From a bacterium (GTDB lineage: Bacteria; Patescibacteriota; Minisyncoccia; Phycocordibacterales; UBA918), in NCBI GenBank assembly GCA_002710785.1, contig PAMC01000016.1:13435-77434 (forward strand): DNA of 64,000 bases, given 5' to 3'. The notes beneath the pieces are model-generated. The model made no database searches. It was not told where the DNA came from and saw only the letters and a program-made list of their open reading frames with translations. The position numbers and the translations under genes are program-made. This document shows positions 15,206 to 40,780 of the stretch, piece after piece (the first letter of the stretch is position 1; every line of letters starts with the position of its first letter).

Positions 15206-15766
15206 CTAGCCCTCGTTTGCAAGTGCTGCCAGCAGCGCCTTAAGCTCCTCTTCACCGATCGGTCGGCGAATGTGCTCGCGCACCACTCCAGCACTATTCA
15301 TAATGATGGTTTCTGGCATCGTACGACCTTCATAATTTCTATACCAGTAATCTGCCGGATCTTTGAGTACGACTAGGTCACTTTGCAGCAACTCGGGTGT
15401 TACGATCTTGAGATACTGCTGTATCGTGCCTGGATTTTCGCCCCGATTAACGGCAACAAACTGAGTGTCTGATGATGATAAAAGTGCTGCCAATGCGTGT
15501 AACGTTTGTAGTTGCACCGCACAATCTGGGCACCAGCTAGCCCAGCTGGTGACGACAAACCATTCTGCAGTTTGCTCAGTAAAGCGAAATGGTTGCTCAT
15601 TGAGTGTTAGATATGTGTACGAGAAGTGTGCTTCTGCTTCTGCCGAGCGCTCTTCTGCTATTGAATCTGGTCGCTGTTGTTGCAGGATGAATATTGTCAC
15701 CACGCCAATAATGAGGATCGACCCGATTATTAACAACGTTGTTTTTGAATCTCGCTCTATGGTCAT
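15206..15766 (-). CDS. TlpA/ResA-like membrane-anchored thiol-disulfide oxidoreductase (thioredoxin fold, CPDC)
   Basis: WASWCPDCAVQL CxxC motif in a thioredoxin-fold context; N-terminal TM LLIIGSILIIGVVTIFIL; start set to ATG at 15766, the ORF-track start is a TTG 10 codons upstream. Confidence 0.7.
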   Translation of the reverse strand: MTIERDSKTTLLIIGSILIIGVVTIFILQQQRPDSIAEERSAEAEAHFSYTYLTLNEQPFRFTEQTAEWFVVTSWASWCPDCAVQLQTLHALAALLSSSDTQFVAVNRGENPGTIQQYLKIVTPELLQSDLVVLKDPADYWYRNYEGRTMPETIIMNSAGVVREHIRRPIGEEELKALLAALANEG

Positions 15767-15916
15767 ACTTGTGACAGATTTACAACGGCTGTTCAACTTG
15801 CTGTAACTGAGATTGACGCTCCAAGTAGGTAAACGTCACCATACCAACAAGGAGGGTTAGGAAGAATAACGCAAGTAAAATTAGTACTGAACGATCCATA
15901 GAGCAATGGTACCACG

Positions 15917-24500: not shown

Positions 24501-24697
24501 AAACCAGATTTTTGGTGCCGAGTCGGTTGGTTATCTGCGTTGTTGGCAATCACAGCTTCGGCAGCAATTATAGGCCGAAAGGAGAAGAAAAGCAGCCCAA
24601 ACAGAAGTACCATCAAGCACGAAAACCAAATCCGTCTCTCAGTCTGAGTCCATATGCAACAAAACTCACGGACGTTGCCGAATATCGTTAAATTCAC
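18536..24697 (-). CDS. giant secreted protein (2053 aa): N-terminal Asp-box (BNR) beta-propeller, four copies of an uncharacterised about 200-aa module, conserved C-terminal domain
   Basis: Signal anchor; Asp-box SKTTDGGATWGG and S-x-SWS repeats; modules starting YHWRNDNG (x2), YRWYDN, DWRWYDDE, each with R-L-R, L-Q-Y-G/S, C-F-R and Y-P motifs; C-terminus ...YSSDIVYLVTPEF. Confidence 0.8.
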   Translation of the reverse strand: MNLTIFGNVREFCCIWTQTERRIWFSCLMVLLFGLLFFSFRPIIAAEAVIANNADNQPTRHQKSGFSTVFTDDQTGYRFYTITNGTCYYSKTTDGGATWGGATQFNNFSDCGSISVWYDQWTPGDTGDYIHIVTMHQNSAREDIRYNRLDTTNDTLLVGLSGTDATTGQTPTISHGAAKPALTKGTDGTIYTGLTDNTDGFIVECSSNCDLSTSWSETGTNPLDVVTGDMQILVPLLGGDIMVIDRDRNANDVRSKVWDNTSWDASWTAIDASAVESATYEVGMTAVVDPDTGDVHLAYTADNNNFTAADHDIRTAKYSGGSWSKTADILTNDSRGITDLAMAVDANTDDVYVAYGARGTIGSSTSANVYWASSTSAMGSWSIDNGPLNVATDDFYGVDTNYRSDQRLYVSWHALTPLDIRGETMLDPTPPLTVSSIGSQISEVRGSTTSNYLGGTFVFTEFDSSRSVTGITITEDGSVDGANDIANIRLLYELDTSAPYDCSSESYDGSELQYGATDTNGFNGANGIATFVDSVSVATSSTLCVYVLLDVLGSADDGQTIDVEISNSSTDVSVTGGITPKPNTAIALSGATTVVRPDLQQTGYHWRNDNGNESGATSVTAGVENTGLVDLPRNQPRRLRIALSNEGSTSTLSTNFELEFGVANPTCGDVGTWTGVDDADDAWNMHNSSFITNGTDSTDIATSSGGVSNPNSSFASPNGGLLDTTSQTNSITLTSTEFVEYEFSLVASTTASQGSTYCFRLSEGGAVLGQYIEYPTASIAADVNVSSVGNQVANAEIGDVDIYGGGAFVITEASDARNVTAITIAEMGTIDADTDVANIELYYDSDTSAPYNCASESYAGTESQFGSTVANFDAANGNASFSDSVGISTTSALCVYVVYDVENTAQNGDTIELEITNPNTQITVSGGASVAPSTAVTIASTTSVSGAIVTQVHYHWRNDNGTETTASSATSGTEDTAVLDIDKNEPYRLRLGLSNEGGTSSVPVQYTLQYGIRETTCDVVASWTNVDAFANDSWDMYDSTFLTDGSDTTDIPVADGGVSDEEADFLTSNGGIAETDASTPTTTLSSTNYVDFEFSITTTANTPFETDFCFRVVENGTPLVAYDVYPEISTKTNRDYKTQRGTNVISGSSLTLTAGVDYDAPASTSVAFVRITNFHHTGAGRDTGAGNQNPDDVSAYITSSNLPTSFTITRDTDSVNNTFVAWEIIEFIGDPGTDNEMVVRDVGTISMSSGQTYATSSAINPITDDGDIAVFITGARMTNASRGNFSNNRATAAWSSSTNQVVLTRSATNTSADFSYAVVEFLGGNWKVQRVEHEFSSAGVTETESITPVSAVTKAFLETQKRHTFTSQQASYGVQAWLSSMGVVSFSLDSGADMAQTHTAVVWVIENIQNGAGEMTVFPASGLFTGGTAPATTSVSFDAVGVNDINNAAIFGNTTIDRATNNFPEIMAGLYLTSSTTFEIWRSDTQGTLSYRAMVVEWPAADVSIRQNDYRWYDNTNALTPTDAWPPGAGSIGENSPITVLDTPVGDGDVIRLRTSLLITNGTLPATLQSLKLQYGLQETTCSAISSWNDVGAPGSGSIWRGFDNGAVADNAAIGTNPPTGGQTLLAVSDRSGRYVEGGSATANPYSVNADEDVEYDWVIQHNGATQRSDYCFRVVQDDGTQLAEYLTYPSLRTEGYSPVQSDWRWYDDETSLTPSTDLAAENVAPVEVQKGNTVKLRVIVDELNNLEQANARFRLQYSDSAGFATVNDVVNSGSCGGSDVWCYDDGAGVDNAIIDEKVLTNTDICNAGVGVGCGTHNESDLTLTGYTHTALSATEFEFTIQYQNISGYYGQVWYFRVYDVANGDVVPLDSGATYPSLVGESGSLAFTVNGLPAGTSTEGVVTTASTTATTIPFGSLVTDSDAIAGQRLSIDTNAVSGYRTQLYTRQQLQNSDSDTIADIAGTNSAPSGWSAGCSGLTSCFGYHAGDDTLSGNTSRFALDDTYAAASTTPEEIMYSAVPATESEDIIYRIVVTGTQPPGDYSSDIVYLVTPEF

Positions 24698-26521: not shown

Positions 26522-27250
26522 TTAGTTAAAGAAGGAGTCGGCCAAAATAATAGCAAAATCAGTGAAATTCATGCGCCTGTCCTGGTTAAAATCGTACAGC
26601 CACTGCCTGTTGCGCCAGGCGCGCATAAATTCGTTAACATCGGCCAAACTGACGTTACCGTCGCCATCGATATCCGTAATAAACGAAATGGCCACATCAC
26701 CACTCAGGATGCCGTCTTCACTCACTCCAACCACCAAAATTGGTGTATCGGCAATCTCATCCACTTCACTACCGTTCCCATCACCAGCCAAAAGCGTCGT
26801 CTCACTGACGCTAAATTCAGCGCGTCCACCTGTATTGGCTTTGAAGTTAATTCGCGCAACTTGATGTTCACCCACAAACCCCTTGCGGAAGGTGCCGCCA
26901 CGCAGAATCACCTGCGACCCCTCAACGTACGGATCTTGTGTCCAGAGTGAGATTACTGACTCACCAGTGTCTATGCCGGTTACCTCAACCTGATTGCTGG
27001 GAAACGAGACGGCAATATCCACTGCATTTACCGAGCGGTGTGCACCAGCATAGACGTAGACTGAAAAAGAATCCCCGGCAGCAACACTGCGCTCTGGTGC
27101 CTCCAGCCTAATGTAAGAAGTTGTGTCAGTTAGGAGGACTGTGGCAACAAGCGAAAGGGCTGCGAGTGTGGCAAACGAAAACGTGTGTCGAATGGTACGC
27201 ACTCGGGCCTGTTTACGAAAACGGTGGAGTAAGCGACGGAGAAACATCAT
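26522..27250 (-). CDS. cohesin-like domain + dockerin protein
   Basis: N-terminal signal; cohesin-like block SFSVYVYAGAHRSVNAVDIAVSFPSNQVEVTGIDTGESVISLW...HQVARINFKANTGGRAEFSVSETTLLAGDGNGSEV; C-terminal dockerin F-hand repeats DIDGDGNVSLADVNEFMRAW and DFNQDRRMNFTDFAIILA. Confidence 0.6.
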   Translation of the reverse strand: MMFLRRLLHRFRKQARVRTIRHTFSFATLAALSLVATVLLTDTTSYIRLEAPERSVAAGDSFSVYVYAGAHRSVNAVDIAVSFPSNQVEVTGIDTGESVISLWTQDPYVEGSQVILRGGTFRKGFVGEHQVARINFKANTGGRAEFSVSETTLLAGDGNGSEVDEIADTPILVVGVSEDGILSGDVAISFITDIDGDGNVSLADVNEFMRAWRNRQWLYDFNQDRRMNFTDFAIILADSFFN

Positions 27251-27906: not shown

Positions 27907-29667
27907 TTAGCTAACTATATCATCAACCTCGGAAATTTCCTTGCGGATTGTTTGCTCAGCTGCGTCGATGTGTGCGAGTGTATCATCAACAAGTTGTTGT
28001 TCAGCTTTAGTGAGTTTTTTAGTTTTGCGCGAGCCGCGGAGCGTCTGACTTTCGGCAGTAACTGTCTCTCGCAGGGTAGTAAACTGGCGTTCGAGCACAG
28101 TCAATGCCTCTCCCGTTTCGGCAACCACAACCCGTCTGATTCGGCGGATGCGGGCTCGGCCATAGAGAAGTAGCAAAACGAGGAGAAGTGTCAGTGCCAC
28201 GAGTGGTACGAGAACCGACATGATGCTTACCGCCCACTGACCAAAGGCGATGTAGCCTGGTTGAGCCACTAAGAAGCGTACCGTCTCACTCGTTGCGCTC
28301 TGTGAACCATGCGAATCAATCGCATAGGCGGAGAGTTCGTACACCCCTTCCGACAGACGTCCGTCCGGCACAATTCTGAACGACCCGTCCTCCTCAGCAC
28401 CCAAAACGTACTCGAGCGGCACATCCCCCTGGTCACCGCGACCAACTGGTGCAATCGTCGCGTATACAGTTGCCCCTGGCCGCGTAGAGCCAAAGAATAC
28501 CGGCACGACACTGGCTCCCACCTCTGCGGGATACTCGGTCCAAACCGGAGCAGCAAACGCCTCGATGGTAAAGCTAATAGTGGCAACCCGGCTATTACCT
28601 GCCGCATCGAAAGCTTCAATTACAAAACTCTGCTGTCCAGGTTCAAGCTCAGTCAGGGTGAGTGTGCTGCTGCCGGTTTCGTCAACAAATTCGTACGGTT
28701 CTCCACCGTTGTGCTGGATACGATAACGCGTTACTGGGGAGGTCGCGTCACTACTACTAAAGCGAAGTTCTTGCGTAGGGCTAGAAACATCGTAGGCGTC
28801 GCTACGAGTGATAGAAAACTCGGTTGGCGCCTCAGTATCAACCGCGAGACGGTAGTGCGCCACTCGACCCCACCCTTCAGTGTTGCGGAACTGGAGGTGG
28901 AAGTACTGCACACCCTCATCTAGCTCACTCAGCGTAATCGAGTTAATCGGCGGCTCGTATACTTTCGTTGGGATGGTGCCGCTATTAGTATCGAGTAGCG
29001 TGCGAACTGCCGTCACATCACCCGGAATTGACCACGACAGTTTTGCTTCAGTGGCTTGTGACCATCCATCTGCCTGGTGGGTCTCGCTCGAAATATTTGG
29101 TGTACCAGGAGTATTCGCTGGAGCGATGTACTCAATGGTCTCTGGCTCGGGCTGCACGTCGGCTGCGGCAATGGTGTACGTACCGCCATTAAGACTCTGT
29201 ACTACATTTGTACCCCGTCCATCGGCTGCTAAAACTGACCCGTTGCTGAAGGTAACCCGTGCTGGGCCTGCACCTTTAGAACGCCAGGTAATCGTGAGTA
29301 CCGTACCAGCACTCCCGGTGTAGCCAGCTGGAGAGCCGCCGCCAAAATTAATAGTACCGGCTGCGTTTGAGTACGATGGCTCGACGGCCCACAGTGAGAA
29401 GGTGTTCCCTTTGCTGATGCCGAGCACTGAGAGCTGACTCGGGTTGAAACTAAGTGTAGCTTCGGCGGCGTTAATGGCAGTTCCGCGTGTATTTACGACT
29501 ACCCGCGTCGTAAATGTCTGTCCTGCGGTGTACACACCGGTGCTCGGTGAGAGCGAAAGAGTTGCGGCTGACACGGTAGTAGCGCCGAGTAGGAAGAGAG
29601 CACACGCAAATACAAAGCTCAGTAGGTAGGTATGGGCAGTGGCGCTAGTTCGTATCATTGTCTTCAA
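27907..29667 (-). CDS. cohesin-like domain surface protein with Ig/FN3-like domains, TM anchor and cytoplasmic coiled-coil tail
   Basis: Signal peptide; cohesin-like block ATLSLSPSTGVYTAGQTFTTRVVVNTRGTAINAAEATLSFNPSQLSVLGISKGNTFSLWAVEP...ARVTFSNGSVLAADGRG; TM AVSIMSVLVPLVALTLLLVLLLLYG; about 85-aa charged coiled-coil C-terminus. Confidence 0.6.
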   Translation of the reverse strand: MKTMIRTSATAHTYLLSFVFACALFLLGATTVSAATLSLSPSTGVYTAGQTFTTRVVVNTRGTAINAAEATLSFNPSQLSVLGISKGNTFSLWAVEPSYSNAAGTINFGGGSPAGYTGSAGTVLTITWRSKGAGPARVTFSNGSVLAADGRGTNVVQSLNGGTYTIAAADVQPEPETIEYIAPANTPGTPNISSETHQADGWSQATEAKLSWSIPGDVTAVRTLLDTNSGTIPTKVYEPPINSITLSELDEGVQYFHLQFRNTEGWGRVAHYRLAVDTEAPTEFSITRSDAYDVSSPTQELRFSSSDATSPVTRYRIQHNGGEPYEFVDETGSSTLTLTELEPGQQSFVIEAFDAAGNSRVATISFTIEAFAAPVWTEYPAEVGASVVPVFFGSTRPGATVYATIAPVGRGDQGDVPLEYVLGAEEDGSFRIVPDGRLSEGVYELSAYAIDSHGSQSATSETVRFLVAQPGYIAFGQWAVSIMSVLVPLVALTLLLVLLLLYGRARIRRIRRVVVAETGEALTVLERQFTTLRETVTAESQTLRGSRKTKKLTKAEQQLVDDTLAHIDAAEQTIRKEISEVDDIVS

Positions 29668-30896: not shown

Positions 30897-32042
30897 TCAG
30901 AATATTGGTGTGGCAACGTAGCGCAGTGTGGTTGAGTAGGCATCTGAGGCTTCTTGCAAAGCCGAGATTTCTACTCGGTACCCCACCCGCGTGGTACCCT
31001 CACCGGTTCCTGTCCCATCAGTAGGACCGGTATGACTCATCACTACAACAGGTGTAGTGCTCGCCGCTACCCACGAGTTGCTCGTAAACTCTGCGCTGCG
31101 TGTTGTTGTCGCATCATCAGAGGTTAGACCCCAGTGCCCAAAGGTGGTTGGATCACCTGGTTGCGCCGCTGGAGAGAACCAACTTGTAGGTGTGGTGGTG
31201 TAATCACCATCGCGGAACGAGTCAATGATAGCGCCGCCTGAAGACATAAATTCTCCATCTTGCGCCACGGTGACTACGTACCCTTGCGATGCGTTAGTAA
31301 CCACCCGCAATTCTTGAGCCGTCGTGCTCGCGACCCCTTGCGTCAGATTTCCGAACGCAAGCGTAGTTGGAGTCGACGAACCGGTGGTGGTGACACCGTT
31401 AACAGTCTGACCGCCGCCCACCGCGAGTACCTGAAAGGTAAACGTGGTGTCGACAGTCGCCGTTACGGTAACCGTGTCAATAATGACAACCTCGGTCTCA
31501 CCAGTATCAGTTTGTGTTCCCGCAATGCCAATCTCGTAGCTACCCGTTACGCTCGGGTTCACGAGCTGATTGGAGCCAGACCCGCCAAAGCTGGCATGGT
31601 CGCCAATCTCAATTGTGGTTGAACCGTTAGCTGCGATTGAAGCGCCGTCGCCAGGACAAAACTCAATCGTCAGTACTGCTCCACTAAAGCTGATACCGAT
31701 TTCATCAGAGCCGACGGTGCAGTCTGTGGAAACTGACAAGTCAGTCGCGCCATCCTGCACGTCGATGTCTGTAGCAGCGATACTAGACGTACCGGTGAAC
31801 GGACCATCCGAGAAATCGATGGTGATAGTTTCACCATTGCTGATACCCGTAGGGGTCGTAAAGACAATGGTGTGGTTCGAGGCAGAACCAGGGCTCGAAT
31901 CGCTCAACGTGTCAGACACGTTGGCAATACTTGCAGCGCTTACCAGCCAGCTGGAGTGAAAGTTGGTGCTCCAAAATAGGAGCCCGACACTCACAAACGC
32001 TGCAACAGCTTTGAGTAGCCGGAATGATTTCATTCCAGACAT
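30897..32042 (-). CDS. secreted Thr/Gly/Ser-rich beta protein sharing the C-terminal domain of the 2053-aa giant
   Basis: Signal peptide MSGMKSFRLLKAVAAFVSVGLLFWS; C-terminal about 150 aa align to the 18536..24697 C-terminus (FGHWGLTSDD.../FGYHAGDDTLSG; WVAASTTP/YAAASTTP; ...LRYVATPIF/...IVYLVTPEF). Confidence 0.65.
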   Translation of the reverse strand: MSGMKSFRLLKAVAAFVSVGLLFWSTNFHSSWLVSAASIANVSDTLSDSSPGSASNHTIVFTTPTGISNGETITIDFSDGPFTGTSSIAATDIDVQDGATDLSVSTDCTVGSDEIGISFSGAVLTIEFCPGDGASIAANGSTTIEIGDHASFGGSGSNQLVNPSVTGSYEIGIAGTQTDTGETEVVIIDTVTVTATVDTTFTFQVLAVGGGQTVNGVTTTGSSTPTTLAFGNLTQGVASTTAQELRVVTNASQGYVVTVAQDGEFMSSGGAIIDSFRDGDYTTTPTSWFSPAAQPGDPTTFGHWGLTSDDATTTRSAEFTSNSWVAASTTPVVVMSHTGPTDGTGTGEGTTRVGYRVEISALQEASDAYSTTLRYVATPIF

Positions 32043-32174
32043 ACTCTACGTTGTTAAGCTGCAGCACCCATCACGAGGATAGCTGAGTCGACTCCAGACT
32101 CCACACCGAAGTCGCACTCACGATGCTGTAGCGTACAAATCGTCTCACCGGGCTGTACGGTGATTGGGCAAGCC

Positions 32175-32196
32175 CAAAAGACGAGCCGTGCTCGTC
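32175..32196 (-). terminator. intrinsic-terminator-like hairpin (8-bp stem AGACGAGC/GCTCGTCT, 3-nt loop) followed by UUUU on the minus transcript
   Basis: Read directly: plus strand aaaAGACGAGCcgtGCTCGTCT; on the minus strand the stem is followed by TTTTGGGC; sits 340 nt after the 32535 gene stop inside a 490-nt non-coding gap. Confidence 0.45.
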
Positions 32197-32534
32197 TCTA
32201 CGTTTTGTACTCTTAAAGTATACTCCGCGCCAACGGACACTTGTTCGCGGCTATACACATATAGCTGCACAGTTTACCTATCCTACTCAGTCCAGTGGAA
32301 AATAAATGAGTAAATGAACGAAGCGATTATTACGAATTTACTTCCGAAGTTTGTCTTAGTCTAGACAAAAATCCTGGAAGGCCAGTATCGATACTCGCAG
32401 TCTGTGAGTAAAACGGGTGATCAGCAATCTACTGCGCTGAATAGCTTAGCAACAACGCAGTAGAATCGCCCTAGATCAGGAGCGATTCACTCGCGAAAAT
32501 TCGCAACAGTCGGCTTCGCCTTGTTTGCTCATTT

Positions 32535-33668
32535 TTACCCAGTCCAGTTAAACAGCAAAATCGAAAAGTCCTCAATACCAACGTTGCCGTTACCATTTAT
32601 GTCAGCTGGAGGGTCAGAGTCGCCTCCGGTAGTCTGCCACCAAAAAATCATGATCGAGAAGTCAATTAAGTTTACAAAACCGTCACGGTTAAGGTCGGTT
32701 GGTGTGGTAGCGCGGCCATCAACGCCTACAAATAAGGTGAGGCTGCTACTAAAGCTACTCTCAGTCACGAGGACTCCGCTACCTTGGATAAAGCGAGTGC
32801 GAAGTAAATACTCAGCGGGCGCGAGGCCGGCAGTATTAAATTGGTACTCCCAGACTCCATTTGCGCCTGATGTTACCTCGGCTATCTGCTCGTCGTCCTG
32901 ATAAATCTGTACCGTCTTATCTGGTGCAGTTTGACCACGTAATAGAATGACATCTCCAGGATCAATCGTAACGTCATCAGCAGAAATGGTTGGTGGTAGT
33001 AGCACACCTCGGACAGTTGTGACCGCACCCTGCGTCACATCAAAGGTTGAATTGTACGTAATCGAACGTGTACCAAAGGTGTCTTCAGACCACAAGCCGA
33101 GCGAAGCGGTACCTGGCTCAGCGTCGACTGCAAACTCAAATTCGCCGTCACTATCAGCCCGAATAGTCCCAACCTGCTCGGCATCCAGTAGCACCTGAAC
33201 TGTCTCATTGGGGTACGCGATGCCTTCAACACGCACAAGCGTATCGCCAAGCTCTTCATCACTACCGCCAGAATTTCCACTTCCGCCACCTGAGCTGCCG
33301 CCGCCGCCAAAACCAGCTGGTTCTACCTGGCAGTCTGCCGAACAAAAGTCATCATCGGTATTGTTGCCGTCGTCACATTCTTCGTCAAACAAGGTCTGTA
33401 AAATGCCGTCCCCGCAGTACGGACCAAACTGACAGTCAACGTCACACTGACGACCAGCAATGGTGGTGCTATACGCACCTGTCTCACCGGGCACGTCACA
33501 CGCCTCGTTAAAATTTACGAGCGCGTCGCCGCAAATACTAATACCCACAGTAGTAGTCGCAACCGTTGTGGTGAGCGTTGAAGTGGGTGTCGTAGTAGCA
33601 AACCCCACATACGGCAGCAAGAGTAAAAGGCTGAGAACACCAGCTCTTAGACGCGATAGCATGCACAT
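32535..33668 (-). CDS. secreted protein with Myxococcus-type Cys-rich repeats, Gly-rich linker and C-terminal dockerin
   Basis: Signal peptide; repeats CGDALVNFNEACDVPGE..., CGDGILQTLFDEECDDGNNTDDDFCSADCQ; GGGGSSGGGSGNSGGSD linker; dockerin F-hand repeats DLNRDGFVNLIDFSIMIFWW and DINGNGNVGIEDFSILLFNW. Confidence 0.65.
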   Translation of the reverse strand: MCMLSRLRAGVLSLLLLLPYVGFATTTPTSTLTTTVATTTVGISICGDALVNFNEACDVPGETGAYSTTIAGRQCDVDCQFGPYCGDGILQTLFDEECDDGNNTDDDFCSADCQVEPAGFGGGGSSGGGSGNSGGSDEELGDTLVRVEGIAYPNETVQVLLDAEQVGTIRADSDGEFEFAVDAEPGTASLGLWSEDTFGTRSITYNSTFDVTQGAVTTVRGVLLPPTISADDVTIDPGDVILLRGQTAPDKTVQIYQDDEQIAEVTSGANGVWEYQFNTAGLAPAEYLLRTRFIQGSGVLVTESSFSSSLTLFVGVDGRATTPTDLNRDGFVNLIDFSIMIFWWQTTGGDSDPPADINGNGNVGIEDFSILLFNWTG

Positions 33669-33682
33669 ACCTCTTTGCAGTA

Positions 33683-34606
33683 CTAGCTACGGCGACGATA
33701 CACCAGTAGACCGATAATGATTAAGACGGTGAGAATCGGCAAAATAATTGAGACCTTGTGCGGCAGTGACAAGCCAGCAAAACCATACCCGGCCGTCTGC
33801 AACGTGCCGTACGGCAGGATATTTAGCGTCAGCTCACCCTCCTGTTTAATGTCATCTTGATTATAAATGGAGTACCGTGCCAGGTACGAACCAGCTGGCA
33901 AGCGCGTTGGTATCTCGGCCACCACGTCTTCAGTTGCAAATGGCTGCACTCTGACAATTCGGTTGCGGTGGTGAGTCTCCTCCAGAAGCGTCTGTCCGGT
34001 TGAATCGTAGATCTTGAAAACCACATCGCTCGGCGCTACGTCAACGTTGCCGGTATTCTCGATACGCATGCCAAAGTTAATCTTAGCTGGGAAGTAGAGC
34101 CAGCCAACTTTGTGTCCCTCGTTAAAGTCGGGCAATTCGATCTTGCGTACACGAAAATCAAATATCTCTCTATCAATGATCGTTAGGTCGATGTCGACTT
34201 GTGCACCTAAAGAAATGTTAACGGCGCCAGCAGTTTCAGAGCCCGGTGGTGGTGCAGTCTTAATGCGGATCTTGCCAGAGTAACGTCGGAATTCTGCGTC
34301 GTCAGGGACCGTCACCCGAACGGTCACCGGCACTTTTTTGGCGCCAACTGGCATAGCAATGAGATCACCCTCGAGCACCTCTACCCAGTCAGCAATCGTG
34401 GGGGCATCAACCGTGATGCGGGCGTTGAGTGGGGTTGATGGGTCGCTGCGGACCATGAGAATCTGCTGTTCGTATACTGAGTTACGCGTCAAGCTCGTAT
34501 TACGCACGTACGGTGGTGTAATACCAAAACCAGCGTAGGAAAGATTGACCCCCACCACGTAGGCAATAAAGAACACCGAGAAAAATACGTAGAGCTTCTT
34601 TATCAT
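33683..34606 (-). CDS. DUF916/DUF3324-like cell-surface protein, C-terminal TM anchor
   Basis: Signal peptide MIKKLYVFFSVFFIAYVVGVNLSYA (start set to Met17); GFGITPPYVRNTSLTRNSVYEQQILMVRSDPSTPLNARITVD; second beta domain; TM ILPILTVLIIIGLLVYRRRS. Confidence 0.55.
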   Translation of the reverse strand: MIKKLYVFFSVFFIAYVVGVNLSYAGFGITPPYVRNTSLTRNSVYEQQILMVRSDPSTPLNARITVDAPTIADWVEVLEGDLIAMPVGAKKVPVTVRVTVPDDAEFRRYSGKIRIKTAPPPGSETAGAVNISLGAQVDIDLTIIDREIFDFRVRKIELPDFNEGHKVGWLYFPAKINFGMRIENTGNVDVAPSDVVFKIYDSTGQTLLEETHHRNRIVRVQPFATEDVVAEIPTRLPAGSYLARYSIYNQDDIKQEGELTLNILPYGTLQTAGYGFAGLSLPHKVSIILPILTVLIIIGLLVYRRRS

Positions 34607-34711
34607 GTCACAATCACTTCTTCCCATTATCACCTCAACTGGGCGATAAAACAACAGCCACCGTCTGGATAACGGTGGCTATCTGGTTAGCTATTTCAGC
34701 AAGTTTTAGGC

Positions 34712-36607
34712 CTACGGACCCCAGCGGGTTGAACTACTTGTTTGTGCAACAAACTCGTTTCGTCCCGTGTAGAGACCAGCTAGAGTAATAGTGCCTGGCA
34801 CCTCAATACCCCAGTAGGTGGTGCCTGACGGCTGAGTTGACGTTGCGGTAGGCTTTAATACACCGAGACGCAAACGTTGTGCGGAGGTGGTCGCCGGCAA
34901 ATCCTGGCCTGAGCCGTACGGCAAGCTTGAGGTAGCGTATTCCTGTTGGTACTCAGCAATAGATGAAGTCGCTGTAGTTGAGGCGACGTTTGGACACCCG
35001 CCAACAGTAAATGTGTCGGGACACATATGCACACCACCGAGCTCTTGGTCGACACCTACGTTACCGGTTGCGCGCGTAGTTGTAGTGGCGTTTAGGTTGC
35101 CGGTATTATCGCCTGGTGCTAAGTCACCGTACGGAATTGCGTTGGTGTCGAGTGCAAATGAGAGGAATGATACCACTTCAATGTTCGCTGTTGTGCTTTG
35201 TACAAACGAGCTGGTTGCGCTGTCGTCATCTACAGCACTGATTCCGGCACGCCAGTCCTCAGTTTCATAAACTGGTGTTTCGGCAGCAGGATCGGTTGGG
35301 TCAGCAACGTACCAAAGCGGGAAGGTACACTCCCAAAGCTCAGTAGCGTCTGTTGGTCCACCACACGCGCCAGCACCAGTGGTCGTTGCGGTACAGCTAA
35401 CGTTCCAGTCAGCGCCAGCACCACTTTCGTAACAGTTGTTAGGGTTGTAGTTACTGCCAGCTCCGTCACACGTTGTCGAGCCAACGCCTGAACGGTACAC
35501 CGAGGCGATGTAATTCGTAATTTCCGAACCAGCCACGCTGTTCTCACAACTGTTAGCGTCGTTAGCAACAAAGGTCAGCGTGAAGCCAGTCGTCTCGCCA
35601 GCTGCTGTATCGAGAGTCATGTCAAGGCCACCGTTAAGTGAGATCAGTGCGCCATCGATGGTCGGGGCTACGTTTGCTACAACGTACTGGTTATTAGCTC
35701 CTTGCTGGCCACCACTGGCTTCGTGACCATGGTTGTCTACGACGTAGACGTAGGCATCGTACGTGTCGTCTTGTAGTGGTGTCGCAGTAGTTGTGGCCGC
35801 GGAAAGCACTACCGGTGTACCAGAGGTGAAAGTAGATGTGGCAATGGTACCAGCTGGACCACACGCGTTAGTGGTTGGATTGTAGTCGTTAGAGACACAC
35901 ACCAAGAGCTGCATGGTGTCGACGCCGCCAAGAGAGTCGGTATCAGATGATGTTGCACTGAAGGTGAGCGTGCCAGCTGGGTCGACTGGTCCGTCGTTCA
36001 CGATTCCAGTAAAGGTTGGCCGGTGGTTTACTACAAACGGAGACGCCGTGGTAGTCGTGCCTTGGTAGCCAGGACTACACTCAGGGTTTACCGCGTCATC
36101 GTCACATGCGAACGCCCACCAGGTATTACTCTCAGGCATTGCCTCAGTGGTTGTCGTCGCTGCACGCGCCTCGGTGCCACTGATTGTACTGGTTGAGATA
36201 GCAATTTGGTCATTGTTATCACAGGTAGGTGGCGCACTACCATCACCCGCTCCTGACTGGGCAGTAGCGGCATTGGTGGCACACACAATGAGGAAGTACG
36301 GGGCCCCGTTCTGGTCAGTCGCGGTACCAACGATAGCCAGCTCATCACCTGAGTTGGTTGGGTTAGTAGCTGACGATTCAGTTTCTTCGTTTGGTTCATC
36401 CGCCTCCAGTAAGAACTGTGGTGGGGTGTTTAGAACATTAACCGAAGTGGTCGCAAGCTGCTGCGCAGATACGTTGTTAATTTCAGCCTGGCCGAGATTA
36501 AGTAAAAATACGAGTAAAAATATACCTAAAGCACCGACTGTGGTGAGTACGGTGATCTTGCCGGCGGTAGTGAGTGGCTGGCGATTTGCTCTAACTTTGT
36601 ACGACAT
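34712..36607 (-). CDS. secreted Thr-rich beta protein (631 aa), N-terminal signal anchor
   Basis: N-terminal TM ITVLTTVGALGIFLLVFLLNL; Thr/Ala/Gly-rich throughout with scattered Cys pairs; no catalytic motif. Confidence 0.55.
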   Translation of the reverse strand: MSYKVRANRQPLTTAGKITVLTTVGALGIFLLVFLLNLGQAEINNVSAQQLATTSVNVLNTPPQFLLEADEPNEETESSATNPTNSGDELAIVGTATDQNGAPYFLIVCATNAATAQSGAGDGSAPPTCDNNDQIAISTSTISGTEARAATTTTEAMPESNTWWAFACDDDAVNPECSPGYQGTTTTASPFVVNHRPTFTGIVNDGPVDPAGTLTFSATSSDTDSLGGVDTMQLLVCVSNDYNPTTNACGPAGTIATSTFTSGTPVVLSAATTTATPLQDDTYDAYVYVVDNHGHEASGGQQGANNQYVVANVAPTIDGALISLNGGLDMTLDTAAGETTGFTLTFVANDANSCENSVAGSEITNYIASVYRSGVGSTTCDGAGSNYNPNNCYESGAGADWNVSCTATTTGAGACGGPTDATELWECTFPLWYVADPTDPAAETPVYETEDWRAGISAVDDDSATSSFVQSTTANIEVVSFLSFALDTNAIPYGDLAPGDNTGNLNATTTTRATGNVGVDQELGGVHMCPDTFTVGGCPNVASTTATSSIAEYQQEYATSSLPYGSGQDLPATTSAQRLRLGVLKPTATSTQPSGTTYWGIEVPGTITLAGLYTGRNEFVAQTSSSTRWGP

Positions 36608-36701
36608 AATAAATAACTAGCTGTCACCAATAATTGTAACGAATTTACGTTCCTCTGTGCGCTGCGCACGTTGATAAGTGTTGATAGTAGTTTTGAGCCA
36701 A

Positions 36702-37910
36702 CTACTCGTAGCGGATGGCATCGAGTGGGTTTAGGGATGCCGCCCGACGGGCCGGGAAAATACCAGTCAAATACCCGACCGCAGCAGAGAAAAGCGCAAT
36801 AAACGTAAGAAAAGTGAGCGGAAACGAGAATAATTGCACTGCTTGACCGCCAAACTGACTGGCTACGAAGTTGAGTAAGACATTAATAGTCGCTCCAAAT
36901 ATAACTCCCATGACAATTCCCGACAAACCACCCAGAAAACCAACGATGATTGATTCAGACACAAAGAGCCACTTAATGTCGCTCGGTGACGCGCCAATAG
37001 TGCGCATAATACCAATCTCTTTGGTTCTCTCCAGAAGCGTCACGGTCATCGTGTTAAACATACCAATCGCCGACACGACGAGCGCAATACCACCAAAGAT
37101 TGCTAAAGTGACCTGGATACCCTGGAAGATCTTACTGGCTTGGTCGACAGTTTTTGAGAGCGCCGTTACCCGGTACCCATCTTCGATCAGTTCAGCTTCA
37201 ACCGGCTCAAGAAATTCGTTGGTGCTGACACGCACCTGGGCTCGCTCGTACTCATCGATACCTACGTAATTGCGTAGTTCTGGCATCATCATAAGGGCGT
37301 TAAGCACACCTTCCTCTTTGGTAATACCGCGTACGAGGTAATCTTTTTCGATGGGAATTTCTAGAATTTCGTCAGTGCCGTCGTCGGCCGGCACAAGCAA
37401 GCGGAACGTTACCTGCTCACCAACAAAGGTTTCAGCCTCTTCAATACCAAATAATTTGAGGACCGCTGGTGAAAGCATGACCGAGCTACCATCGCCAGCA
37501 TCATCGTCAGTGAATACCTGACCGGCAGAGGCAGTAATACCGGCGTAGCGCAGGTATGGCGGCTCTGCTCCCTGCAAGAAAACGTTGCCGGTCAATCCTT
37601 TGTAGGTAATGAGGGCTGGAAAGCGAGCTAACGGCGCAGCGTCGAGGACGTTGTCTTTTTCTTCAAACTCACGAATGGTCTCATCTGTAATCTGCAAATT
37701 TTGTGCGCCAGTAGCAGACACACCAAGCGAGAGAAGGGTTTCACCAAATACAATCTGCTCAAGAATGATCTGCTGCAACCCGAATCCTAGACCTACTAAA
37801 ACCACCACCGCACCAGTGCCCACGCCCATGCCAAGAATAGTCAGCCAAGTACGCATCGGGTTTGTTTTAAAGGCTCGGGTTGAGAGTTGGGCTAGATCTT
37901 GTGCTCGCAT
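36702..37910 (-). CDS. ABC transporter permease, FtsX/MacB-type (4 TM with large extracytoplasmic domain between TM1 and TM2)
   Basis: TM1 WLTILGMGVGTGAVVVLVGLGFGL, about 200-aa periplasmic domain, three C-terminal TMs with FtsX-like IGIMRTIGASPSDIKWLFVSESIIVG. Confidence 0.85.
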   Translation of the reverse strand: MRAQDLAQLSTRAFKTNPMRTWLTILGMGVGTGAVVVLVGLGFGLQQIILEQIVFGETLLSLGVSATGAQNLQITDETIREFEEKDNVLDAAPLARFPALITYKGLTGNVFLQGAEPPYLRYAGITASAGQVFTDDDAGDGSSVMLSPAVLKLFGIEEAETFVGEQVTFRLLVPADDGTDEILEIPIEKDYLVRGITKEEGVLNALMMMPELRNYVGIDEYERAQVRVSTNEFLEPVEAELIEDGYRVTALSKTVDQASKIFQGIQVTLAIFGGIALVVSAIGMFNTMTVTLLERTKEIGIMRTIGASPSDIKWLFVSESIIVGFLGGLSGIVMGVIFGATINVLLNFVASQFGGQAVQLFSFPLTFLTFIALFSAAVGYLTGIFPARRAASLNPLDAIRYE

Positions 37911-37936
37911 ACTACGTACTCAGTATAACAACGGGG

Positions 37937-39262
37937 CTACGACTTGTAGCTGACGTCCACACCTTGGGCAATTAGCTTTTCAAAGTAGCGGGTTAGTGAA
38001 TCAGCCTCCTTCTCAGCCAGACTCAGTCCGCCGACGGTAATGCCGCGCGCGAGCATTTCGTGAAAAGTGGCTTCTTCTATCACGCCGGTTACGCGGTCGG
38101 CAATGAGGTCGACCAGATTTTTGTTCTGTTTCTCTGAAAGCTGGAGGCGGTAGGAGTGCAAAAGATGATCACGTAACCGCTCGGCCAGTTGGTCTTGGCT
38201 AAAGAACGAGCTAGCCTCTTTTTCTCGCTGCGCTCTAAAGCGACGAATGTCGTCAGCCTGCTCAATCATGCGGGTAGAAATTTTTGCCATTTTACGAGCA
38301 GTGGCAGCATCGATGCCGATACCACCAGCTTCAAACGGAGCGGTTAAGGATTTCACAAAGGCGTCTTTGTGCAGTTTGCCCTTAATGAGGTAGCGAATGG
38401 ACTTCTCGAGGCGTACCAATTGATCGTACGTGTAGTCTTGTGTTAGGTAGTTGACGAGACTCTTTACGCGCAGCGTGTCAATTGAGTCGTACGGGAATAG
38501 TCGAGCCAACTGTTCGAGTTCGGTCACGATGGTCTCTCCTTCTTTTACTGGTTTAATTTGCTTACGCTGCGGGTTGACCACCTCACGTACGATGCGGCCA
38601 TCCTTGAGGTAGTACACGCGATGCGCGTAGCTTAAGTGCGCTGCGTTATGAGAGACCATAATAACGGTCCGGCGGTCAAACGTGTTAATTTCGTCAATTT
38701 TGTCCATTACCTGCTGCGTGGATACTGAGTCGAGGTTACCAGTCGGCTCGTCAGCCAAGAGAATCTTCGGGTCGTTCACCATCGAGCGAGATACCGACAC
38801 ACGCTGCTGTTGCCCACCGGAGAGCATCGCCGGAATCTTATGTGAGACAAACCCCACCCCAAACCGATCGAGTAGCGACTGCGCGCGACGGTTGCGCTTT
38901 TTCTTGTCAGCGTCGCAAAAAATCATCGGTAGCGCCACGTTGTCGAGCACCGTGAGCGATGGAATGAGGTTAAATTGCTGGAAGATAATCCCCATCACGT
39001 ACCGCTGAAAGTAGACGCGTTCCTCAGGTGGGTAGCTGTAAATATCGTCACCCCGGATAAGCATAGTTCCGTTACCTGGTGGCAGCGAGCCTTGGATGGT
39101 GTACATGAGGGTCGACTTACCAGACCCGGAGGCGCCAAAGAGAATAATGTACTCCCCTTCGTAGATATCGGTATTGACGCTGGAGAGCGCTTTAAACTCA
39201 TTACTTTTACCCTTGTTGTAGGTAATGTCGAGGTCTCTACAGATGATCAGTGGTTTTGCCAT
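37937..39262 (-). CDS. ABC transporter ATP-binding protein (MacB/LolD/FtsE-like) with about 215-aa C-terminal extension of unknown function
   Basis: Walker [11 protein letters not shown]-loop, signature [14 protein letters not shown], Walker [14 protein letters not shown]-loop MVSHN in the first about 225 aa; a further about 215 aa ([12 protein letters not shown]...GVDVSYKS) is helical/charged with no motif I recognise; 6 nt after the upstream FN3 gene stop. Confidence 0.9.
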
Positions 39263-39268
39263 AACAGT

Positions 39269-40780
39269 TTATGCGCCAATGTTTTGCACCCAACCAAATG
39301 TGGCTTCGAAGTTCTCAAGAATAAGATCAATGATGTTCTTTTCTTGGATTGGGGTAAAGAGCACAAAGTTTTCGCTCTGCACACTGTTGCCCGCTTCGTC
39401 GGTACAATTGAGCCAGAACTGGTACACCGTTGCTGGCGCAAAGTCGACGATCACCTCCACGTGCCGCTCGGTATAGTTGATCTGCTCCGGCTCAATGGTG
39501 GTTGGTTCGACACCACCAGCCACACCCTCTCGGTACGTCAAGAGACAGTAGGCTGCTTCGTCGGTACGCCACTCAACAATGGTTTGGATGCGCGATTCGC
39601 TGCCCGGAAAGAGGGTTGATTCGTTGGTAACATTGCTGATAATCGGCGCTGAGGTATCGCGCACCGTAATGAACGTAATCGGCTGACTCCGTACACGGTC
39701 GCCGCCACCATTCTCCGCGATCACAAACGCCACGTAGCGAGTACCGAGCGTTAGGTCGGCAATCCGCATCTGGTGCGTCGTCGCGAGCGTCGGGCGACCA
39801 ACCGAGTTTTGCGCGCCGGTCGTGAGGTCTTGGTACTCAATGAGTGCCTTGGCGGGTACGGTTGTGTCCCAGGCTAGCGTTGCTGCATCCTCTTCCACTT
39901 TTACGATGCGGAGGTTGCGAATCTCTGGCAACGAAGCTTTGGTTCGGAAGGTAAAGTCGAGTGAACTACCGGTAATACCAAACTCGTCAGTTGAACGGAC
40001 TTTAAAGTGGTACTCGGTAAAGGGCTCAAGGCCGATCAGGCGAATGGAGTGGTTGCTGGTATTGCCACCTGTGCTCGACTGCGAGAAGGCGTATACGTCT
40101 GGCTGGTACTGACTGGCCGGCGTAAAGAGTACCTCCGAAGACGCGGGGCGGTCAGTCGTCCACTCAACGAGCGCTGTTGTGGTCTCTGGGGTAACGGTCG
40201 GCGGACCAACAATAGTCAGGTCTTCGGTGATACCTTGTACCGCCTTTACGATTTCGTTCTGGATCTCTCTAATCTCTTGCGGATCCTGAATCTGTTTAAT
40301 TTGCTCGATGATCTCATTGGTGGTCACCTCGTTCACCTGGCCTGGTCCAACGTCAACACCATCGCCGGTACCACTATCGCTCGGGGTACCAGTTGTAGAA
40401 ATGCGGTAGTCGGCTGAGATACCTTGGTTGCCGTCTTCGTCTGAGGAACCGACGCGGAAGTAGTAGACGCGCCCCGGTTCGAGATTCTCGAGCGTTACCT
40501 CGTGCGCCTGACGGACAGTTTCCGGCACACGTACGATGCCGTAGTCGGGCTGTAGTCCGTAGTTAACGAGTGAATCAGCATCTTCGTCGGTTTCCCACGT
40601 AATGCGTAGCGTCGTATCGTCGACGTTTTCGACTTGAACGTTCGTAATTTCCGGCGCCACGCCGTCGCCCACCTGCGCTAAGGTAGCTGGGGTGAAATAC
40701 CAACCGGTTACCAGATACACCAAAAGGACGCCGTAAGACCGAAACATTACTTGCATTGTACCAGTCACTGTTTTACTCAT
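39269..40780 (-). CDS. secreted protein with four fibronectin-type-III-like repeats
   Basis: Signal/TM VLLVYLVTGWYF; repeats of the form LRITWETDEDADSLVNYG...YYFRVGSSDEDGN, TALVEWTTDRPASSEVLF...YHFKVRSTDEFG, ATLAWDTTVPAKALIEY...YVAFVIAENGGG, IQTIVEWRTDEAAYCLLTY...YQFWLNCTDEAGN. Confidence 0.7.
   Translation of the reverse strand: MSKTVTGTMQVMFRSYGVLLVYLVTGWYFTPATLAQVGDGVAPEITNVQVENVDDTTLRITWETDEDADSLVNYGLQPDYGIVRVPETVRQAHEVTLENLEPGRVYYFRVGSSDEDGNQGISADYRISTTGTPSDSGTGDGVDVGPGQVNEVTTNEIIEQIKQIQDPQEIREIQNEIVKAVQGITEDLTIVGPPTVTPETTTALVEWTTDRPASSEVLFTPASQYQPDVYAFSQSSTGGNTSNHSIRLIGLEPFTEYHFKVRSTDEFGITGSSLDFTFRTKASLPEIRNLRIVKVEEDAATLAWDTTVPAKALIEYQDLTTGAQNSVGRPTLATTHQMRIADLTLGTRYVAFVIAENGGGDRVRSQPITFITVRDTSAPIISNVTNESTLFPGSESRIQTIVEWRTDEAAYCLLTYREGVAGGVEPTTIEPEQINYTERHVEVIVDFAPATVYQFWLNCTDEAGNSVQSENFVLFTPIQEKNIIDLILENFEATFGWVQNIGA

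Follow-up and report, generated by a model that had tools for sequence, protein, structure and literature searches.

Our data indicate that the open reading frame at 32535..33668 of the window (the whole 64,000-nucleotide stretch of DNA that was analysed) encodes a genuine and, as predicted from its signal peptide, secreted protein that is built from a small disulfide-rich head, two Ig-like spacers and a dockerin tail. Across Kaiserbacteria-type ultrasmall (CPR) bacteria the gene is conserved and present in single copy. We propose, at slightly better than even confidence in the model as a whole, that the protein is docked on the cell surface by pairing of its dockerin with a cohesin, and that its displayed head plays an adhesive role. 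The gene and the parts of its product are listed here.

32535..33668, minus strand: the gene, an ORF of 377 aa in the ORF list (NCBI entry MAZ30314.1, 'hypothetical protein')
33540..33668, minus strand: Sec-type signal peptide (aa ~1-24, ...LLLLLPYVGFA / TTT) and Thr-rich N-terminal stretch (aa 25-43), from sequence reading
33429..33539, minus strand: Cys-rich repeat 1 (aa 44-80), a degenerate DUF4215-like copy, C46-x10-C57-x17-C75-x3-C79, with its four Cys invariant in 36 orthologues
33318..33428, minus strand: Cys-rich repeat 2 (aa 81-117), canonical DUF4215 / TIGR02232, C85-GDG-x9-C98-DDGN-x6-C109-x3-C113, from HMM matches
33261..33317, minus strand: Gly/Ser-rich linker (aa 118-136), from sequence reading
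32721..33260, minus strand: two tandem Ig-like domains of Big_6 / Big_13 type (aa ~137-316, about 180 aa), from Big_6, AlphaFold2 and Foldseek
32538..32699, minus strand: type-I-like dockerin (aa 324-377) with two Ca-loop/helix segments, from Dockerin_1 and loop motifs

A Shine-Dalgarno sequence, AAGAGG, lies 7 nt 5' of the second ATG of the ORF, and gene callers return a protein of 375 aa; the start is therefore probably the second ATG, at 33662 (375 aa). Outside the coding sequence, an Rfam search of the 492-nt spacer after the gene returned nothing, and a scan for promoter and terminator consensus gave counts not above those of shuffled sequence. The protein exceeds the curated cut-offs of four Pfam and NCBIfam models, namely DUF4215, TIGR02232, Big_6 and Dockerin_1. 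The same collections gave no match to a catalytic domain in this protein or in any protein of the surrounding gene cluster, and no match to a pilin domain in the protein itself. Inspection of its sequence found no lipobox, LPXTG motif or transmembrane (TM) segment. The Thr-rich stretch (aa 25-43) carries a conserved ATTT(L/V)xxS motif, and residues A37, T38 and T39 are invariant or almost so among the 36 orthologues.

The first-pass annotation had recognized Myxococcus-type Cys-rich repeats in the head, a description that fits the second repeat but not the first. Repeat 2 accounts for matches to TIGR02232 myxo_disulf_rpt (44.2 bits against a cut-off of 20.8, aa 83-117) and PF13948 DUF4215 (34.4 bits against 27, aa 74-114), and when searched alone it scores 45.1 bits to TIGR02232. 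Repeat 1 (aa 44-80) alone matched no repeat-family HMM, and its family consensus gave a sub-threshold half-match covering model positions 4-16 only (14.7 bits, E 0.02). It has the same four-Cys frame as repeat 2, plus a conserved insert, VPGETGxYSTTIAGRQ. The ECDDGN motif occupies aa 97-102, the C-x3-C pairs are C75-C79 and C109-C113, and all eight cysteines of the mature protein (4 + 4) are invariant across the 36 orthologues. The head comprises one canonical and one degenerate repeat, rather than tandem repeats that each match the model. AlphaFold2, run on the 36-sequence alignment, gave pLDDT <50 for aa 28-138, which includes the Cys-rich head, so the cysteine pairings are unreadable from this model.

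Relatives of repeat 2 are found far from the myxobacteria. In a profile search its region matched human pappalysin-1 (aa 864-899), and the pattern CGDG...EECDDGN...C-x3-C is shared with DUF4215 / TIGR02232 proteins such as pappalysin-1 and the diatom protein Ca5255. Diatom adhesive and adhesive-trail proteins carry DUF4215 repeats, and the repeat has been reported, by very weak similarity, in proteins of CPR Peregrinibacteria. Typical members of the family have many tandem copies (12 in Ca5255; 12-38 matched stretches in giant proteins), whereas the protein described here has its one canonical and one degenerate copy. Overall, the repeat family spans bacteria and eukaryotes and is not specifically myxococcal.

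Between the head and the dockerin lie the linker and the Ig-like spacers. The Gly-rich linker and two-repeat dockerin described in the first-pass annotation are both borne out, as a Gly/Ser linker (aa 118-136) and two canonical Ca loops. That annotation omitted the tandem Ig-like domains, ~180 aa between linker and dockerin. PF17936 Big_6 matches at 28.5 bits against a cut-off of 27.6, and the domains are modelled by AlphaFold2 as all-beta with pLDDT ~90, the sole confidently modelled parts of the protein. A Foldseek search with the spacers returned tandem Ig structures, including those of Bap (7dm0) and SiiE (2yn3). PF00404 Dockerin_1 matches aa 324-371 at 27.0 bits against a gathering threshold of 22.9. 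The 12-residue Ca-loop motifs, DLNRDGFVNLID at 325 and DINGNGNVGIED at 356, start 31 residues apart and are followed by FSIMIFWW and FSILLFNW, respectively, giving a shared helix pattern DFSI(M/L)(I/L)F. These loop and helix residues are near-invariant among the 36 orthologues.

We found at least 1,530 database homologues of the protein, and relatives are encoded in 204 GTDB species genomes, nearly all of them Patescibacteria. One homologue is named by NCBI 'DUF4215 domain-containing protein [Candidatus Kaiserbacteria bacterium]', and no paper describing the family was found in the literature on DUF4215 with dockerin or on cohesin/dockerin in CPR. DUF4215, Big_6 and Dockerin_1 are all present in 36 of the 36 sampled orthologues (best Dockerin_1 E value, 4.5e-8). 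The domain pairing had been taken as unusual; with this distribution, the DUF4215-dockerin fusion is not the rarity first supposed. Mean pairwise identity among orthologues is highest of all segments in the dockerin (87%), with 81% for the linker, 69-77% for the head and 49-62% for the Ig spacers. Greater conservation of dockerin and head than of the Ig spacers would be expected of a protein with a specific partner for each end. Furthermore, the Gly-Ig-Ig-dockerin cassette also forms the C-terminal part of proteins that carry a different head (fn3, MG2, Y_Y_Y or unknown), and with this recurrence it behaves as a portable attachment module.

These data bear on the reading of the gene as encoding a Cys-rich protein of Myxococcus type that resembles MYXO-CTERM cargo, carries, unusually, a dockerin and receives its disulfides from an adjacent TlpA-like oxidoreductase. 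The HMM search placed both the repeat model and Dockerin_1 above curated cut-offs, so the match to the myxococcal repeat family (TIGR02232) is real, and the window does encode a Redoxin-family protein on the same strand. The C-terminus, however, is the end of the dockerin (...FSILLFNWTG), with no MYXO-CTERM NCBIfam match at E <= 1 and no terminal TM segment; proteins sorted by MYXO-CTERM differ in carrying a C-terminal sorting signal. The breadth of the repeat family also argues against this reading, as does a large CPR family whose members normally have the fusion. Nor is the oxidoreductase adjacent. A six-frame motif scan found one thioredoxin-fold ORF in the window, at 15206-15796 (WCPDC, Redoxin 33.2 bits), ~16.7 kb and nine genes downstream and beyond the stretch of the cluster for which synteny was established, within +/-10 kb. 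TlpA/ResA-type redoxins are usually reductants, which makes the disulfide-supply idea chemically weak. We consider the myxococcal reading very improbable.

In 38 of 38 complete loci from different species, the gene occupies the same place in a cluster of ~14 genes, as judged by a synteny test covering +/-10 kb. The cluster order is a giant protein, an fn3 protein, a MacB-type ABC transporter, a Cys-rich protein, a PapD/WxLIP-fold membrane protein and the gene itself, followed by a Pam-pilin-like protein, three cohesin-like proteins, one of which has a dockerin too, and further large proteins. In the window, its neighbours are the following.

34712..40780, minus strand: upstream cluster genes encoding g631 (secreted, 14 Cys), a MacB/FtsX-type permease, an ABC ATPase and a triple-fn3 protein, from Pfam and NCBIfam; syntenic from g631 to the triple-fn3 gene in 36-38 of 38 complete loci
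33683..34627, minus strand: g323/314, with a signal peptide, two PapD-like beta-sandwich domains and a C-terminal TM helix
30897..32042, minus strand: g381, a secreted pilin-like protein, distantly related to the Pam-pilus pilin C-terminal domain, from NF058581
29645..30781, minus strand: g378, with a cohesin-like N-domain, a second domain shared with g586, a C-terminal TM helix and an acidic tail, from hhalign
27907..29667, minus strand: g586, with a signal peptide, cohesin, fn3, Big_13, a C-terminal TM helix and a cytoplasmic tail, from Pfam Cohesin
26522..27250, minus strand: g242, with an N-terminal hydrophobic anchor, a cohesin-like domain and a second, different dockerin, from Dockerin_1 and hhalign

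Among the cohesin-like proteins, each of which has a single cohesin, g586 meets the PF00963 Cohesin threshold (31.9 bits against 24.1), has a TM segment at aa 473-500 and is syntenic in 38 of 38 complete loci. The other two score below the cut-off: g378 at 22.2 bits, with only 3 of 33 orthologues matching, and g242 at 20.9 bits, with 13 of 33 orthologues matching Cohesin and 32 of 33 matching Dockerin_1. Since Pfam Cohesin reaches so few of the g378 family, homology to the g586 cohesin had to be assessed by profile-profile comparison. By hhalign, the g378 and g586 families align with a probability of 99.8% (E 7.6e-28), and g242 aligns to the g586 cohesin at 98.9% (E 1e-17). On these profile alignments, the cohesin-like domains of g378 and g242 are clear paralogues of the g586 cohesin. 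Family-specific HMMs for further dockerins and Cys-rich modules in the window retrieved only the gene itself plus, weakly, g242, and loci that extend far enough have exactly these two dockerin ORFs. Conservation of the cohesin domain is 66% in g586, 57% in g378 and 51% in g242, a weak hint that we do not take as pairing evidence. We regard g586 as the best candidate docking partner for the dockerin, while g242 may be an adaptor.

We reasoned that, because neither a membrane anchor nor a lipobox or sortase signal is present, the protein is most likely held at the cell non-covalently through its dockerin. In the docking model, a non-enzymatic modular surface protein would be exported by Sec, and its dockerin would bind a cohesin-like module, of which three are encoded 2-5 genes downstream. 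Such docking would place the head at the end of a stalk of Ig domains, with the Gly/Ser linker as a hinge between, where it would form a rigid disulfide-stabilised tip for binding or adhesion. The gene itself is a constant member of this cell-surface cluster in Kaiserbacteria/Paceibacteria-type Patescibacteria. Two observations from other organisms favour the model: an envelope protein with a dockerin domain is essential in Southlakia, a cultivated Patescibacterium (PMC10633639), and diatom adhesive-trail proteins contain DUF4215 repeats.

The main challenge to cohesin docking is that the dockerin-like module could be a plain EF-hand Ca2+ module, or could bind a wall or host glycan or a remotely encoded partner, and the protein could even be a released factor. 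Non-cellulosomal dockerins often have no identified cohesin partner. Consistent with this possibility, the Dockerin_1 score is little above the Pfam cut-off (27.0 against 22.9), a PDB profile search matched a cellulosomal dockerin only marginally (E 0.097), and the dockerin (aa 323-377) is modelled with pLDDT <50. We nonetheless judge it unlikely that the module bypasses the cohesins of the cluster, given that three cohesin-like genes are strictly co-located with it across species, that its helices are extremely conserved and that the cassette is reused under other heads.

The docking model resembles non-cellulosomal cohesin-dockerin surface display, with which it shares a C-terminal dockerin of two duplicated Ca-loop/helix segments, nearby membrane-anchored candidate partners that bear cohesins, and a cassette reused under different heads. 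It differs from such systems in having no enzymes, a tiny disulfide-rich head as cargo and a CPR host, with binding that is predicted, and in having one cohesin per protein, anchored by a C-terminal TM helix and not by an SLH domain or sortase. Cellulosomes are typified by cohesin and dockerin modules, and one might suppose that the protein is a subunit of a cellulosome-like enzyme complex for polysaccharide degradation; a CBM60 match overlaps Ig1, but at 15.4 bits it falls far under the cut-off of 28.2. Neither the protein nor its cluster partners have a catalytic domain, and each cohesin protein has one cohesin, whereas a cellulosome has dockerin-borne CAZyme subunits and a multi-cohesin scaffoldin. 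We consider a cellulosomal role hardly credible.

Does the protein instead belong to a pilus? The Pam pilus of CPR bacteria was described in 2026, with PamC and PamD combining a PapD-like fold with a C-terminal TM helix (bioRxiv 10.64898/2026.03.03.709456). At every locus, the gene is flanked immediately by the PapD/WxLIP-fold gene on one side and the pilin-like gene on the other, and the protein might join or cap a Pam-like donor-strand-exchange pilus of g381, aided by g323, through its ATTT(L/V)xxS strand, with the dockerin recruiting other components. In favour of this arrangement, g381 matches the Pam pilin C-domain model NF058581 over model positions 3-148 of 148 (29.9 bits, E 5e-7), as do 19 of 33 of its orthologues at E <= 1e-3; g323 has the topology described for PamC/PamD; and the signal peptide is followed by a short conserved strand (E40-44 in the AlphaFold2 model; T39 invariant). 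The NF058581 match is full-length but sub-threshold (cut-off 55), and we therefore regard g381 as a distant relative and not a certified Pam pilin; a PDB sequence search with g381 found nothing at E <= 1. The N-terminal strand is modelled at low confidence, and the protein itself matches no pilin domain. Furthermore, g323 matches WxLIP and RbmA about equally to usher chaperones, so a chaperone role for it is only putative. Its likeness to Gram-positive WxL surface-protein loci (WxLIP, PDB 9i1y/9i25) is at the level of fold only, with 11% identity, and no WxL-domain protein was detected in the cluster.

Compared with the published system, g381 resembles the pilin C-domain distantly, g323 combines a PapD-like fold with a C-terminal TM helix as PamC/PamD do, and signal peptides are present on all components in both (bioRxiv 10.64898/2026.03.03.709456). 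The hosts differ, with Pam in Saccharimonadia or Microgenomatia and the present cluster in Paceibacteria/Kaiserbacteria. The Pam paper makes no mention of dockerin or cohesin, and the published operon lacks the cohesin, dockerin, DUF4215 and ABC transporter components found here. On balance, we find it quite improbable that the protein is a pilus-associated subunit, and we retain cohesin docking as the preferred reading.

A broader and speculative view, which we consider unlikely, is that the cluster encodes an undescribed CPR surface organelle. Such an organelle would combine a Pam-like donor-strand-exchange filament (g381 and g323) with a cohesin-dockerin network (g586, g378 and g242), and the protein would be its disulfide-knotted recognition tip for host contact, attached by its dockerin, with heads swapped between lineages through the Ig-Ig-dockerin cassette.

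CPR/Patescibacteria are thought to be host-attached, and few of their attachment structures are known. The single Saccharibacterium that is open to genetic work has an essential dockerin-domain protein. The cluster pairs two dockerins with three cohesin-like modules beside pilin-like and PapD-fold proteins, which offers testable pairs for the assembly of a surface adhesion apparatus. Furthermore, with its one canonical repeat, the protein would provide a minimal setting for functional work on the widespread DUF4215 repeat.

The Cys-rich dockerin protein reported by the first-pass annotation is real and was correctly delimited, being encoded by a 377-aa minus-strand ORF (32535-33668) in the ORF listing of the window (the target). 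A Shine-Dalgarno sequence (AAGAGG) lies 7 nt ahead of its second ATG and, given this spacing, the true start is probably 33662 (375 aa), which gene callers also picked on identical metagenome contigs. Scanned against Pfam and NCBIfam models at curated cut-offs, the target passed four.

Family models passing curated cut-offs in the target
aa 74-114: PF13948 DUF4215, 34.4 bits (cut-off 27)
aa 83-117: TIGR02232 myxo_disulf_rpt, 44.2 bits (cut-off 20.8)
aa 140-206: PF17936 Big_6, 28.5 bits (cut-off 27.6)
aa 324-371: PF00404 Dockerin_1, 27.0 bits (cut-off 22.9)

Reading the sequence directly, we found a Sec-type signal peptide (…LLLLLPYVGFA/TTT) followed by a Thr-rich stretch, a first Cys unit (C46-x10-C57-x17-C75-x3-C79), a second Cys unit (C85-x12-C98-x10-C109-x3-C113, with EECDDGN within), a Gly/Ser linker (aa 119-136), and DLNRDGFVNLID and DINGNGNVGIED as dockerin loops, with DFSI(M/L)(I/L)F after each one. 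Since the cut-offs were passed and the motifs can be read in the sequence, the earlier description of Cys-rich repeats, a Gly-rich linker and a two-loop dockerin holds, including the match to the myxococcal repeat model. Family membership stands for repeat 2, which reached 45.1 bits by itself, whereas repeat 1 by itself had no match in the family-model scan and its orthologue consensus reached only 14.7 bits, covering the first third of the model. The target contains one canonical repeat and one degenerate repeat. Two Ig-like domains fill the approximately 180 residues between linker and dockerin; AlphaFold2 confidence was confined to them (pLDDT approximately 90), and by Foldseek this region resembles tandem Ig modules, the adhesins Bap and SiiE among them.

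With the target as query, a word-indexed protein search yielded at least 1,530 homologues. The top 120 share 58-100% identity with it and have lengths of 327-392 aa; for most of them, matches to DUF4215 and Dockerin_1 are among the precomputed annotations. DUF4215, Big_6 and Dockerin_1 were each matched in 36/36 sequences of an orthologue sample, across which the eight cysteines are invariant. The pairing of DUF4215 with a dockerin, which the first-pass annotation had not met before, is therefore not unusual. When each GTDB species was represented by a single genome, relatives turned up in 204 genomes, nearly all labelled Kaiserbacteria, Paceibacteria/Paceibacterota, Parcubacteria or Patescibacteria. 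In NCBI the target has the accession MAZ30314.1 and the title 'hypothetical protein [bacterium]'; the assembly behind it is marine (Tara Oceans). The title 'DUF4215 domain-containing protein [Candidatus Kaiserbacteria bacterium]' is given to a homologue with 64% identity. Far from being a one-off fusion, the target belongs as an ordinary member to a large CPR protein family that is annotated in databases but uncharacterised.

The repeat is not specific to Myxococcota: the family profile also matches human pappalysin-1 (residues approximately 864-899), diatom adhesive-trail proteins are reported to contain the repeat, and large Cys-rich proteins of CPR Peregrinibacteria are reported to resemble it very weakly. 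The NCBIfam scan found no MYXO-CTERM signal in the target. No TlpA-like gene adjoins the target; a six-frame scan of the window gave a single thioredoxin-motif ORF (WCPDC; 15206-15796, minus strand; Redoxin/AhpC-TSA match), which is separated from the target by 16.7 kb and nine genes in the downstream direction. The myxobacterial/TlpA picture is thus contradicted, failing on uniqueness and adjacency. The WCPDC ORF adjoins an AI-2E family transporter gene.

The neighbours of the target form a cluster on its strand. We compared the cluster proteins of the window with 80 loci of other species by tblastn and found a single fixed gene order in 38/38 loci having full 10-kb flanks.

Genes of the cluster, in order
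Gene 1: 40800-63956 (-), giant protein, 7,718 aa
Gene 2: (-), triple-fn3 protein
Gene 3: within 36702-39262 (-), ABC ATPase
Gene 4: within 36702-39262 (-), MacB/FtsX permease
Gene 5: 34712-36607 (-), g631, secreted, 14 Cys
Gene 6: (-), g323
Gene 7: 32535-33668 (-), target
Gene 8: 30897-32042 (-), g381, pilin-like, secreted
Gene 9: (-), g378
Gene 10: (-), g586
Gene 11: (-), g217
Gene 12: (-), g242
Gene 13: (-), g526
Gene 14: 18536-24697 (-), 2,053-aa protein

Conservation within the cluster is highest for the permease and the ABC ATPase (77-79% identity across species), and the ATPase has a C-terminal extension of approximately 200 aa. The C-terminal 1,500 aa of the giant ORF are approximately 50% conserved in 37/38 complete loci, and DUF2341 domains are present in the homologue from a Kaiserbacteria genome (L005). 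At the other end, the 2,053-aa ORF is syntenic in 35/38 loci and had no match in the Pfam scan; g631 (631 aa) matched no Pfam or NCBIfam family and is kept in the cluster. The 492-nt spacer that separates the target from the pilin-like gene (32043-32534) contains no ORF and no Rfam match. Part of it (approximately 32299-32379), with no further copy within the window, is similar to intergenic stretches at several positions in clusters of other species (four in locus L045, two in L046, and also in L021 and L024) and could serve as a promoter or leader common to them. A 13-bp GC-rich hairpin with a weak terminator-like T-tail lies between g631 and g323 (34653-34683, minus strand); the promoter/terminator scan that gave it did no better overall than shuffled sequence.

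The cohesin of g586 scored 31.9 bits (Pfam cut-off 24.1) and is followed by fn3, Big_13, a C-terminal TM helix and a cytoplasmic tail. Cohesin matches of g378 and g242 fall slightly under the Pfam cut-off; compared profile to profile with the g586 cohesin, they reached probabilities of 99.8% (E 8e-28) and 98.9% (E 1e-17), respectively, and are clear paralogues of it. A second dockerin, with helices unlike those of the target, is carried by g242 (32/33 orthologues). In every locus reaching far enough, an HMM of the target dockerin matched the target and g242 orthologues and no third dockerin ORF.

The target carries an export signal, and neither a TM segment nor a lipobox nor a sortase motif is present in its sequence, leaving the dockerin as the sole candidate retention device. 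Mean pairwise identity among target orthologues was 87% for the dockerin, 81% for the Gly linker, 77% for repeat 2, 69% for repeat 1, 62% for Ig1 and 49% for Ig2, suggesting that the ends are constrained and the middle acts as a spacer. An exhaustive search of 50%-identity representatives gave 168 proteins at E <= 1e-30, many of them 300-900 aa long with their own C-termini aligning only to target residues approximately 118-377. Among 10 of the 168 scanned with Pfam, Ig and/or dockerin modules were retained in 10/10, and 9/10 had non-DUF4215 heads (fn3, MG2, Y_Y_Y or unassigned). Because it is found with other heads, the Gly-Ig-Ig-dockerin cassette behaves as an attachment module that can move between proteins, with the DUF4215 head as one cargo among several. 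Proteins P0270-P0304 (445-905 aa) have only this cassette in common with the target, and their N-terminal heads are of other types (fn3, MG2, Y_Y_Y or unassigned).

From the anchoring, conservation and cassette data we infer a sequence of export, oxidation, docking and display. The target would be exported by Sec, its eight cysteines would be oxidised extracellularly, and its C-terminus would dock in a Ca2+-dependent manner on a cluster-encoded cohesin, with g586 as the best-supported candidate and g242 as a possible adaptor. Once docked on the cluster cohesin, the small, rigid, acidic head would be shown on the Ig stalk and contact a host or substrate surface. The nearest known system to this proposed docking is non-cellulosomal cohesin-dockerin display. 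A cellulosome-type enzyme complex was rejected because the Pfam and NCBIfam scans found no catalytic domain in the target or in the other cluster proteins. The phylum offers a precedent for such proteins being important: Southlakia epibionticum has an essential envelope protein with a dockerin domain (PMC10633639).

The target may instead be part of a Pam-like filament, joined via a conserved N-terminal strand; gene order speaks for this, but a pilin domain is undetectable in the target. In another alternative reading, the dockerin may make no use of a cluster cohesin. Its neighbour g381 aligned to the whole model of the Pam pilus pilin C-terminal domain (NF058581; E 5e-7) with a score under the curated cut-off (29.9 vs 55 bits), and 19/33 g381 orthologues matched the model. 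The proposed link between the cluster and the Pam pilus draws on this match below the threshold and on similarity at the level of folds. According to a 2026 preprint (bioRxiv 10.64898/2026.03.03.709456), PamC/PamD are chaperones of PapD/FimC type that have a TM helix at the C-terminus, while PamR resembles RbmA and also has a TM helix. The preprint assigns Pam pilins chiefly to Saccharimonadia and Microgenomatia and makes no reference to cohesin, dockerin or DUF4215. We found no description of the cluster in the literature on DUF4215 with dockerin or on cohesin/dockerin in CPR. The cluster is the part worth keeping, a strictly conserved surface-apparatus locus in which cohesin-dockerin modules occur alongside pilin-like and PapD-fold proteins. 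If g381 is a real Pam-like pilin, it would extend Pam-like pilins to the Paceibacteria/Kaiserbacteria lineage.
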